This document shows positions 6 to 1,013 of a stretch of DNA of 1,251 bases, piece by piece. The stretch's first letter is position 1. Each line of letters opens with the position of its first letter. The notes under the pieces were generated by a model. That model ran no database searches. It was not told the origin of the DNA and saw nothing but the letters and a program-made list of their open reading frames with translations. The translations under genes were made by a program, and so were the position numbers. Location of the stretch: NCBI GenBank assembly GCA_000004985.1, contig GG739477.1. One strand, 5' to 3'. The stretch is from Naegleria gruberi. Taxonomy: Eukaryota.

Positions 6-138
6 CTTGTTGACTAGTGTCACCCACTTTTGGGCTTGTATGAACGACTCTGCATTGGTAATATCATACACCACAAGAGCTGCATAAGCTCCTCTAAAGT
101 ACATTGCTGGCAATGATTTGTATCGTTCTTGTCCACTA
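6..138 (-). CDS. Rab5/Ypt5-subfamily small GTPase, exon 3, partial ((T)[44 protein letters not shown]). The gene continues past the window edge.
   Basis: Minus-strand translation matches Rab5 '[41 protein letters not shown]' and yeast Ypt52 '[24 protein letters not shown]'. The acceptor tttatAG is at 140-139. An AAG|GTAAT at 8-1 looks like the next splice donor, so the exon probably ends at 6. Alternatively the exon runs to position 1. The G4 (NKxD) and G5 motifs and the C-terminal Cys prenylation motif must lie outside the window. Confidence 0.8.
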
Positions 139-203
139 CTATAAATGTTTCAAATGCATTTACAATAATCATTCAATGATTAATCAAAGATACTAAAACC
201 TAC
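139..203 (-). other. Intron 2 of the Rab5-like gene (65 nt, GTAGGT...tttatAG)
   Basis: In-frame TAG follows 'tgg gat acg' on the minus strand. Donor GTAGGT and acceptor tttatAG restore the frame into GQERY (phase 2). Using the second AG (tag at 137-136) would delete one residue from the DxxG box, so the first AG is preferred. Confidence 0.65.
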
Positions 204-336
204 GTATCCCAAATTTCAAATTTCACAACTCTATCCTCCAATGGTACAGTTTGAGTCAAGAAAGCAGCTCCAATAGTGCTCTCCTCATGCTCACTAAAGT
301 ATCCTCTAACAAATCGCAAGACCAGATTCGTCTTTC
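204..336 (-). CDS. Rab5/Ypt5-subfamily small GTPase, exon 2 ((G)[43 protein letters not shown] + 2 nt of the Thr codon)
   Basis: Open frame on the minus strand with near-identity to the Rab5 consensus [28 protein letters not shown]...[14 protein letters not shown] (switch I / effector loop). Preceded by acceptor tgataatcAG (AG at 338-337) and followed by donor AC|GTAGGT (GT at 203-202). The frame is continuous with exons 1 and 3 only with these splice sites. Confidence 0.85.
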
Positions 337-387
337 CTGATTATCATGTGTTGTGAATTTTTAAAAGCTCATGTTAAAAACACTCAC
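337..387 (-). other. Intron 1 of the Rab5-like gene (51 nt, GTGAGT...atcAG)
   Basis: In-frame TAA immediately upstream of the exon 2 sequence forces an intron here. Canonical GTGAGT donor and pyrimidine/AT-rich tract ending in AG. The P-loop frame is restored only with this splice (phase 1). Confidence 0.7.
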
Positions 388-457
388 CCGTAGAACTGCT
401 GCCCAACAAGATCAATTTATATGACACAAACTTTGGAGGAGTTTTAGAGGATATCAT
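388..457 (-). CDS. Rab5/Ypt5-subfamily small GTPase, exon 1 (start codon at 457-455; MISSKTPPKFVSYKLILLGSSST + first nt of the Gly codon)
   Basis: Reverse-complement translation from the ATG gives KLILLGSSSTG|KT, i.e. the Rab5 N-terminal beta-strand plus P-loop GxxxxGK[ST]. An in-frame TAA lies 18 nt upstream of the ATG. The exon ends at a strong donor CGG|GTGAGT (GT at 387-386), leaving a phase-1 split Gly codon. Confidence 0.8.
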
Positions 458-659
458 TGATTGGCTATTTTTTTAAATTTATCATGTTCATGATTACTGG
501 TGGAAATGATTTGTCAGCTTTGTTCCGATGATAGATATTGGCCCATGTAAAATTCATGATCAATTACTGTAAATGCAAATATGGAAAAGTACAAAATGAT
601 TTTAAAAACATTTTGTTGCAATAAGAGGAGTATTGTGGAAATGTGTTAAAAACATTTGT
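458..659. promoter_or_regulatory. Divergent intergenic region: putative Pol II promoter / 5'UTR of the Rab5-like gene and 5' flank of the tRNA relic cluster
   Basis: By position only: it lies between the ATG (457, minus) and the first tRNA-derived fragment (660, plus). AT-rich, with an A/T run TTTAAAAAAATAG (minus) about 15-25 nt upstream of the ATG and a CCAAT (minus, 540-536). No consensus element is clearly identifiable. Confidence 0.3.
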
Positions 660-682
660 AAGCTGGCGTAGCTCAGTCGGTA
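660..682 (+). pseudogene. Truncated tRNA-Ile 5' fragment: exact 23-bp copy (aagctggcgtagctcagtcggta) of positions 930-952 of the intact gene
   Basis: Perfect 23/23 direct repeat that includes 1 nt of 5' flank, the acceptor 5' strand, the D-stem and the D-loop (A box). Similarity stops abruptly at 683, which is AT-rich with T4 runs at 695-698 and 703-706. There is no B box or 3' half. Confidence 0.8.
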
Positions 683-706
683 TTATATTTAATAATTTTA
701 AATTTT

Positions 707-763
707 AACGTAGCGCAGTCATTTAACGTTGCGTTAATTAATTGGTCTGTCATTTAATTCAAA
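707..763 (+). pseudogene. Decayed tRNA-Ile-like copy (5' half 707-740 plus T-arm-like 741-760), non-functional
   Basis: By-eye alignment to tRNA 935-996: aacgtagcgcagtcatttaa-cgttg... vs ggcgtagctcagtcggtagagcgttg... is about 70% identical, and attggtctgtcatttaattc vs attggtc-gccggttcgatcc. Most differences are G>A or C>T. The A box is degraded to TAGCGCAGTCA and the B box is destroyed (catttaattc). Confidence 0.5.
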
Positions 764-884
764 ATTGAAATTGACACATCGCTCTCTATCAATAAAATTC
801 TGACGTAGCTCTTTCAATAAACGTTGCTATAAATATATATACATACAAATGTAATTAACGCAACGTTAAATGACTGCGCTACGT
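708..884. repeat. Perfect 33-bp inverted repeat (arms 708-740 and 852-884) separated by a 111-bp AT-rich spacer
   Basis: The reverse complement of 708-740 (acgtagcgcagtcatttaacgttgcgttaatta) equals 852-884 exactly. Pairing breaks at 707/885 and 741/851. The arms contain the internal palindromes AACGTT and TTAATTAA and are themselves tRNA-5'-half-like. Confidence 0.9.
800..827 (+). pseudogene. Third decayed tRNA-Ile 5'-half-like fragment (ctgacgtagctctttcaataaa-cgttgc)
   Basis: Aligns to tRNA 933-961 (ctggcgtagctcagtcggtagagcgttgg) at about 21/29 identities. Four of the mismatches are G>A transitions, plus one 1-nt deletion. The cgtagctc core is intact. Confidence 0.45.
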
Positions 885-938
885 GATTAGTTATATTAGA
901 GAATTATTAAAGTATTAAATGAAGAATGCAAGCTGGCG

Positions 939-950
939 TAGCTCAGTCGG
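939..950 (+). promoter_or_regulatory. Pol III internal promoter A box (TAGCTCAGTCGG)
   Basis: Matches TRGCNNAGYGG at tRNA positions 8-19. Confidence 0.7.
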
Positions 951-982
951 TAGAGCGTTGGTCTAATAAGCCATTGGTCGCC

Positions 983-993
983 GGTTCGATCCC
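983..993 (+). promoter_or_regulatory. Pol III internal promoter B box (GGTTCGATCCC)
   Basis: Matches GGTTCGANTCC at tRNA positions 52-62. Confidence 0.7.
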
Positions 994-1009
994 GTCCGTC
1001 AGCAGATAA

Positions 1010-1013
1010 TTTT
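1010..1013 (+). terminator. Pol III terminator T4 run 6 nt downstream of the tRNA 3' end (second T4 at 1030-1033)
   Basis: TTTT on the coding strand immediately after the discriminator base. This is the typical eukaryotic tRNA gene terminator position. Confidence 0.55.

Follow-up and report, generated by a model that had tools for sequence, protein, structure and literature searches.

A duplicated tRNA-Ile start beside a palindrome of tRNA relics in Naegleria gruberi, a possible scar of templated repair

We analyzed a stretch of 1,251 nucleotides from Naegleria gruberi (contig GG739477.1 of assembly GCA_000004985.1), referred to below as the window, in which an intact tRNA-Ile gene is preceded by an exact second copy of its own 5' end. 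The two copies are separated by 247 bp (683-929) that form, not a set of loose pieces, but essentially one long imperfect palindrome, and within it lie three decayed, tRNA-like relics, here designated A, B and C (Table 1). [quoted passage not shown] The window is AT-rich, with a GC content of ~27-28% outside the genes.

The duplicated tRNA start and the adjoining palindrome

The 23-mer AAGCTGGCGTAGCTCAGTCGGTA is present exactly twice in the window, at 660-682 and 930-952, with no mismatches, as the first-pass annotation of this sequence had reported; a repeat of this kind was found in none of 200 dinucleotide shuffles, even when 3 mismatches were allowed. If a single mismatch is accepted (T659 versus C929), the repeat grows to 26 nt (657-682 and 927-952). 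It spans tRNA positions -2 (or -5, in its longer form) to +21 and therefore ends in the D-loop. The upstream member of the pair, hereafter the solo copy, includes the A-box region without the B box, and lies ~270 bases upstream of the start of the intact gene, on the far side of the hairpin that the palindrome can form. Runs of T at 696-699 and 703-706 would be expected to end RNA polymerase III transcription early. Its boundaries are sharp: homology falls from 23/23 to background within one base on either side, just 2 of the next 7 positions match 3' of the repeat, and the upstream flanks of the two copies are not significantly alike (169/1000 shuffles).

Further small repeats occur immediately to the left. 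The sequence TTAAAAACATTT at 646-657, which overlaps the small palindrome adjoining the solo copy, is an exact 12-nt copy of 602-613 (a direct repeat, 44 nt apart), and another small palindrome, 94% complementary (ACAAAATG...CATTTTGT), is found at 591-616; together these hint at more small local duplications in the intergenic region. As a separate observation, the only exact matches of the tRNA-Ile's first 21 nt among viral contigs were the 5' ends of phage-encoded tRNA-Thr genes, on six IMG/VR contigs (L001-L006). The acceptor and D-arm sequence is a common one on which both most likely converged, and the matches are uninformative here.

Table 1. Features of the window and the basis on which each was assigned.
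Feature	Position	Strand	Basis and remarks
Rab5-like small GTPase, first three exons	6-457	-	Six-frame translation, GT-AG boundaries; exon 1 388-457, exon 2 204-336, exon 3 6-138; short GT-AG introns 337-387 and 139-203
Small imperfect palindrome AAATGT...ACATTT	640-657		Directly left of the solo copy
Solo copy, exact 23-nt copy of tRNA -2 to +21	660-682	+	Extends to 657-682, with a mismatch at 659
Long imperfect palindrome	685-915		Arm alignment, shuffling, DNA fold
Left perfect 33-nt arm, within relic A (~709-747)	708-740	+	Alignment to the tRNA
Relic B	~800-832	+	Aligns to tRNA positions 2-35, 76% identity
Right perfect 33-nt arm (relic C, inverted copy of relic A)	852-884	-	Alignment
Partner copy of the repeat (putative donor): 5 nt of leader and first 21 nt of the tRNA	927-952	+	Sequence comparison
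Intact tRNA-Ile(AAT) gene	932-1004	+	ARAGORN; Rfam RF00005
TTTT run in the 10-nt trailer GATAATTTTG	1010-1013	+	Read from the sequence

The outer arms of the long palindrome (685-697 and 902-915) pair with one indel, its core arms (697-746 and 846-895) match at 40/50 positions, and its centre (747-845) includes relic B. Extension of the arms outward from the core was significant both by shuffling (p = 0.023) and against controls derived from the window (p = 0.0015), and the palindrome, when folded as single-stranded DNA, reached -51.6 kcal/mol (z = -7.6). The first-pass annotation had pointed to a perfect 33-bp inverted repeat and to the lack of an open reading frame (ORF) in this segment; both observations hold, with the left arm being the exact reverse complement of the right one and no ORF of at least 30 aa in 683-929. 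The GC content of the 247 bp (0.267) equals that of the adjoining intergenic DNA. The palindrome is placed asymmetrically between the repeat copies, with its left base 2 nt past the solo copy and its right base 12-15 nt short of the complete copy.

The tRNA-like pieces, initially estimated at ~70% identity, resolve into three relics that are 75-77% identical to the 5' part of the tRNA, a similarity that none of 300 shuffles scored as well. Relic A aligns to tRNA positions 6-48 (77% identity) and includes the ATTGGTC of the variable region. Relics A and B are 75% identical over 40 nt and have in common the derived changes ACGTAGC and AACGTTGC, whereas A and C are identical over the perfect arms, yielding a relatedness order in which A and C group first, then B, then the tRNA, with the solo copy being identical to the tRNA itself. 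Relics B and C additionally form a tighter 36-nt hairpin, with 75% complementarity and a 10-nt spacer. All three relics retain CGTAGC at a place where CATAGC is found in most related tRNA-Ile genes, and they therefore descend from the tRNA-Ile of this lineage. The 247 bp consist of tRNA-Ile relics of the same lineage that differ in age and face both ways, which suggests that copying took place locally and more than once, as opposed to the arrival of a foreign insert.

Two other descriptions of the segment were tried and rejected. A tandem array with a period of ~135 or 95 does not fit, the spacings being 42, 95 and 133 nt with no common period, and Tandem Repeats Finder finds nothing. Matches to plant MIR hairpin families in Rfam reached 38-40 bits, against thresholds of 110-195, and indicate only a generic long hairpin.

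Relics of several ages and orientations would also be expected if the region were what is left of an ancient tRNA-Ile cluster, tandem or inverted, in which 660-682 would be the 5' end of a decayed copy that was recently re-homogenized by a gene-conversion patch from the live gene. Clusters and inverted pairs of tRNA-Ile genes do occur in other protist contigs (L011, L035 and L041), and the perfect 33-nt core within less similar arms suggests that conversion has taken place between relics A and C. At the solo copy itself, however, similarity is at background within one base on both sides, such that the flanking homology expected for conversion is absent; and since similarity ends at 682, there is no trace of a decayed gene continuing beyond that point. 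We consider such a cluster an improbable source of the solo copy.

Templated repair as a possible origin of the solo copy

The contrast between an exact repeat and relics of ~76% identity bears out the proposal of the first-pass annotation that the 23-bp duplication arose long after the other tRNA-like pieces. We also concur that the duplication is the mark of recombination or repair at the tRNA gene, and that microhomology-mediated duplication is a candidate mechanism for it. The feature is most likely a small repair or template-switch scar beside an old, locally generated palindrome, that is, a known type of event in an unusual setting. In the specific form that we favor, a patch of 22-23 nt, templated by DNA at the tRNA start, was deposited at the far base of a palindrome that already existed; this we regard as plausible, while stopping short of calling it probable.

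What the sequence shows directly is its anatomy, the junction microhomologies, the placement of both copies relative to the hairpin bases and the lack of such a structure at other loci; the sequence of steps, the initial break and the enzymes in this model are inferred. Palindromes are break-prone, and tRNA genes act as replication-fork barriers in yeast. An old palindrome at ~685-915 would already have stood upstream of the gene, made up of older, incomplete copies of the 5' half of the gene and decayed to ~76%, when a recent break or stalled fork arose at its left base. The free 3' end (...CATTTGTA) would have been unable to pair with the hairpin-folded palindrome, and would have primed on the first single-stranded stretch past the hairpin, ...GAATGCA, just before the tRNA. 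After ~22 nt (AGCTGGCGTAGCTCAGTCGGTA) had been copied, the new ...GTA end would have dissociated and re-annealed at the original site, where repair would have been completed. The product would be a short templated insertion that duplicates the tRNA start beyond the palindrome and leaves the tRNA gene untouched. Hairpin extrusion would have hidden the intervening DNA and brought both palindrome bases together, and relics A, B and C may be earlier products of the same instability.

Both junctions carry the microhomologies that such a model calls for. Priming could have used TGTA at 657-660 against TGCA at 927-930 (TG-A in common), and GTA is found at 658-660, 680-682 and 950-952, so that the donor tract closes with the same bases as the acceptor; because donor tract and acceptor share GTA, a primer could switch to the donor, copy it and switch back. 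The single mismatch in the extended repeat (659/929) sits within the first of these microhomologies, as would be expected if the primer paired imperfectly or the polymerase was prone to errors. The other small duplications and palindromes beside the site are a further hint toward a local scar.

These properties resemble those of alternative end joining, by polymerase theta or by the loop-out and trans modes of SD-MMEJ, the synthesis-dependent form of microhomology-mediated end joining, in that a short, exact copy of a nearby sequence was placed in direct orientation, with microhomology at both junctions and a hairpin-forming sequence beside the junction (PMC5068794, PMC5728401). Templated inserts are overall shorter than 25 bp and follow a microhomology rule at their junctions, and for ~85% of those made by polymerase theta, priming takes place no more than 10 bp from the breakpoints (PMC5068794); hairpins and loops close to a break drive SD-MMEJ, in structures that form within ~30 nt (PMC5728401). 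The insert described here is among the longer ones for its kind, a deletion accompanying it would be recognizable only against an ancestral sequence, and the presence of the enzyme in this lineage is an assumption.

Several points weigh against templated repair. The donor and the acceptor are an atypical 247-270 nt apart on the linear DNA, compared with ~10-30 nt in published cases, and would come within ~15-30 nt of each other only if the 231-nt palindrome (685-915) were extruded; the model therefore needs hairpin extrusion. The arrangement is symmetric (X-Y-X), and the window itself does not prove that X rather than Y was added. The microhomologies are short, AT-rich and possibly due to chance, giving them low statistical weight. 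In addition, the leader TTTGTAA before the solo copy looks as native as that of the intact gene, with related genes carrying GTA(A) at -1, and a literature search on polymerase theta (POLQ) in Naegleria returned nothing relevant. Lastly, the origin of the old palindrome itself is left unaccounted for by the model.

The same junction microhomologies would be produced if the template had been RNA, namely a 5' fragment of the primary tRNA-Ile transcript (from about -2/-5 to the D-loop) that was copied by reverse transcription into a break at the base of the palindrome. On its left, the repeat begins in the leader, a few nt before the mature 5' end, where RNA polymerase III transcripts start and a run-off complementary DNA would end, and the right boundary at position 21 matches a size class of 5' tRNA fragments, although the match at the 5' boundary rests on a presumed transcription start. 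No reverse transcriptase or retroelement is found in the window, and the location of both copies at palindrome bases is explained by a DNA template approached through the hairpin and not by free RNA. An RNA template is thus rather unlikely in our view, and we retain DNA-templated repair as the preferred origin.

The tRNA-Ile gene, its neighbor and its relatives

The tRNA-Ile(AAT) gene is the only tRNA called by ARAGORN in the window, and it scored 59.9 bits (E = 3.6e-12) with the Rfam tRNA model, for which the gathering threshold is 29. An AAT cloverleaf above threshold, its conservation in relatives and a T-run on the 3' side, which is presumably the RNA polymerase III terminator, identify it as a eukaryotic nuclear tRNA-Ile(AAT) gene. 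It has two stem mismatches, U27-U43 and C50-U64, that are both conserved in relatives. The former, together with the whole 28-nt anticodon arm, is identical throughout 93 metagenome stretches from many protists, while the latter is common to all eight related loci (L070, L104-L110) and the T stem is perfect in ~90 other protist tRNA-Ile genes sharing the anticodon arm. The trailer and terminator region (1005-1034) is an imperfect palindrome of 30 nt (GATAATTTTGAATCTAAATTCAGAATTTTA), self-complementary at 22/30 positions.

The divergent neighbor of the tRNA gene, when its three exons were spliced in silico into 112 aa, retrieved 1277 homologues with Ras/Rab Pfam domains. The best of these were Rab5 proteins at 63-72% identity; none was near-identical, and 5.8 billion proteins yielded no homologue exceeding 72% identity. 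Its G-motifs are unusual, with GSSSTGKT in the P-loop in place of the usual GESAVGKS, and DTSGQE in place of DTAGQE in G3, and the protein is either a divergent paralogue or from an unsampled lineage. Since this gene with its spliceosomal introns adjoins the duplication, the locus is eukaryotic.

The collections scanned for the hairpin arm were IMG/VR (with a 26-mer), and the JGI metagenomes and GTDB genomes (with a 24-mer); no match was found in any of the three. As these collections do not include the source genome, the missing second copy is weak evidence. A 29-mer specific to the 3' part of the tRNA likewise had no matches in the viral and genome collections, and neither the 247 bp nor the window flanks matched any of 100 fetched loci. 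Exact look-up of two ORFs of the window returned no record of either.

Among these loci, L070 and L104 each carry an exact match to the complete tRNA gene, and L105-L110 have closely similar versions that share its unusual T arm. In L070 the tRNA is followed by the same 10-nt trailer as in the window. This contig also encodes a BTB-domain protein whose only named relatives are proteins of Naegleria fowleri and N. lovaniensis, at 43% identity; a synteny check around the homologue in these two species found no tRNA genes. By way of the identical tRNA and trailer, a heterolobosean amoeba is the most likely lineage for the window as well. L104 stems from the same ENA sample as a contig with a truncated, 100% identical copy of that BTB protein, and provides 337 bp of sequence upstream of its tRNA. 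Further loci were retrieved through spurious ORFs that read through the tRNA. As side observations, the tRNA-Ile of L070 (47-119) is followed 87 bp downstream by a tRNA-Gly(GCC) (207-277), and in L107 (1004-2176) a variant tRNA-Ile adjoins a 350-aa gene of the Ras/Roc family in convergent orientation, as opposed to the divergent GTPase of the window. The JGI contig L070 ends 46 bp upstream of its tRNA-Ile.

At least 270 bp of upstream sequence could be compared at seven distinct tRNA-Ile loci, with L105 and L106 being a single locus. No tRNA stump, tRNA-like relic or hairpin was seen upstream in any of the seven, L104 included, and among 94 loci (320 kb) a partial copy with the 5' strand of the acceptor stem occurs only in the window. 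With no counterpart at the loci of relatives, the structure is thus peculiar to this one locus and not a trait of the gene family. We considered whether a conserved native leader makes up the right end of the 247 bp, and rejected the idea, given that the upstream similarity between L070 and the window is not significant; the two share only GAATG, 4-9 nt before the tRNA start. Relatives carry GTA or GTAA at -1.

Palindromes and multi-copy tRNA genes are classic sites of assembly error, and the abrupt end of L070 close to an identical tRNA gene would fit with such difficulties, so that the whole arrangement could be an assembly or amplification artefact, such as a chimeric join at the palindrome. 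A misjoin by k-mers, however, presupposes that the genome has the 23-mer with TTATATT after it at some place in any case, and microhomology at the junction is typical of biological events. We regard an artefact as very improbable.

Possible insertion of an element and relation to known systems

The first-pass annotation took 683-929 to be inserted material, possibly a mobile element. In this alternative, a non-autonomous palindromic element of 247 bp (similar to foldback elements or miniature inverted-repeat transposable elements (MITEs), to Dada transposons, or a tRNA-derived retroposon) was inserted in the D-loop region of the tRNA-Ile gene, and a target stretch of 23-26 bp was duplicated or supplied by the element, leaving an intact gene on the right and a dead 5' stump on the left. 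An exact direct repeat does bound an ORF-less segment with long inverted repeats, the left palindrome arm begins 2 nt from the left repeat, and the leader of the stump, TTTGTAA, fits the GTA(A) that precedes the tRNA-Ile genes of relatives. Target-primed retroposition, moreover, can yield long and variable duplications.

The structure of the segment nevertheless departs from that of each class of element with which we compared it. MITEs and foldback elements are likewise short, AT-rich and non-coding, with long inverted repeats and a very stable hairpin, but here the right-hand inverted repeat does not lie at the terminus, its arm stopping 11-14 nt before the repeat, and the flanking repeat is too long for a target site duplication (TSD). 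The arms of a cut-and-paste element with terminal inverted repeats would abut the repeat on both sides, and its TSD would be 2-11 bp as compared with 23/26 nt here, a length that far exceeds the TSD of any cut-and-paste superfamily. A shorter pair of TSD candidates, GTATTATA and GTATTAAA flanking 688-911, matches at 7/8 positions, but is AT-rich and was picked post hoc, and we do not rely on it. For a short interspersed element or another non-long-terminal-repeat retroposon, an A-rich or simple-repeat tail would be expected; the segment ends in ...GAAGAATGC before AAGC on the + strand and in ...AAATATAA before TACC on the - strand, neither with such a tail. No transposase or integrase is present in the segment.

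The one superfamily of eukaryotic DNA transposons known to target tRNA genes is Dada, whose members are specific for tRNA and snRNA genes; in Perkinsus, Dada-tIA and Dada-tIB hit the D-arm of tRNA-Ile, with the TSD TAGCTC, and have sub-terminal inverted repeats that are also found in the target gene (PMC3706591). The perfect 33-nt arms of the palindrome may echo their neighbor in a similar manner, being ~76% identical to tRNA positions 6-38, but are 33 nt long as opposed to the 7-9 nt of Dada and lie at unequal distances from the repeat. Dada insertions generate a TSD of 6-7 bp, split the gene and encode a transposase, whereas here the repeat is 23-26 bp, the tRNA is whole and the segment is non-coding, and no family of copies was found in the collections scanned. 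There is no ORF for a DDE transposase, which a non-autonomous Dada derivative would also lack, so this one feature leaves room for such a derivative.

In prokaryotic integrative elements, which use tyrosine recombinases and are bounded by attL and attR, a direct repeat of part of a tRNA similarly bounds the acquired DNA, with the gene regenerated on one side. These elements are on the kilobase scale with an integrase and usually repeat the 3' part of the tRNA, whereas the present locus is eukaryotic with spliceosomal introns, the repeat consists of the 5' part and leader, and the interior is 247 bp of non-coding tRNA relics.

Insertion is thus unsupported by the tests made, because the repeat is too long, the ends do not abut both repeats, the interior is tRNA-derived, no further copies were found and the relatives are clean. 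More specifically, the relics that make up the interior derive from the same tRNA-Ile variant that was supposedly hit (CGTAGC, ATTGGTC), no second copy of the arm was seen in the three collections or in the 100 loci, including L070 and L104 from the same or a sister organism, and none of the related tRNA-Ile loci is occupied. We consider an inserted element of any of these kinds doubtful. Still less likely is a particular version of it, in which the 247-bp palindrome would be a non-autonomous element that homes to heterolobosean tRNA-Ile genes, its sub-terminal arms mimicking the 5' half of the tRNA and its target kept functional; its integration, with a similarly low likelihood, would duplicate or carry ~23-26 bp of the target (leader and first 21 nt). 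A search of the literature for transposons located at tRNA genes of Naegleria brought up nothing relevant.

If the homing element existed, a eukaryotic lineage that has received little study would harbor a new kind of element, one that homes to tRNA genes and regenerates its target. It would be the eukaryotic equivalent of how tRNA targets are regenerated by integrative elements in prokaryotes, and would differ from every eukaryotic transposon superfamily described. If templated repair is the true origin, the locus would show that a palindrome beside a highly transcribed RNA polymerase III gene can seed repeated small templated duplications, and that hairpin extrusion lets a templated insertion use a donor ~250 nt away, which would be illustrative rather than surprising. 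A tRNA stump, a hairpin and an exact repeat together mimic the footprint of an integrating element, and can thereby mislead annotation.

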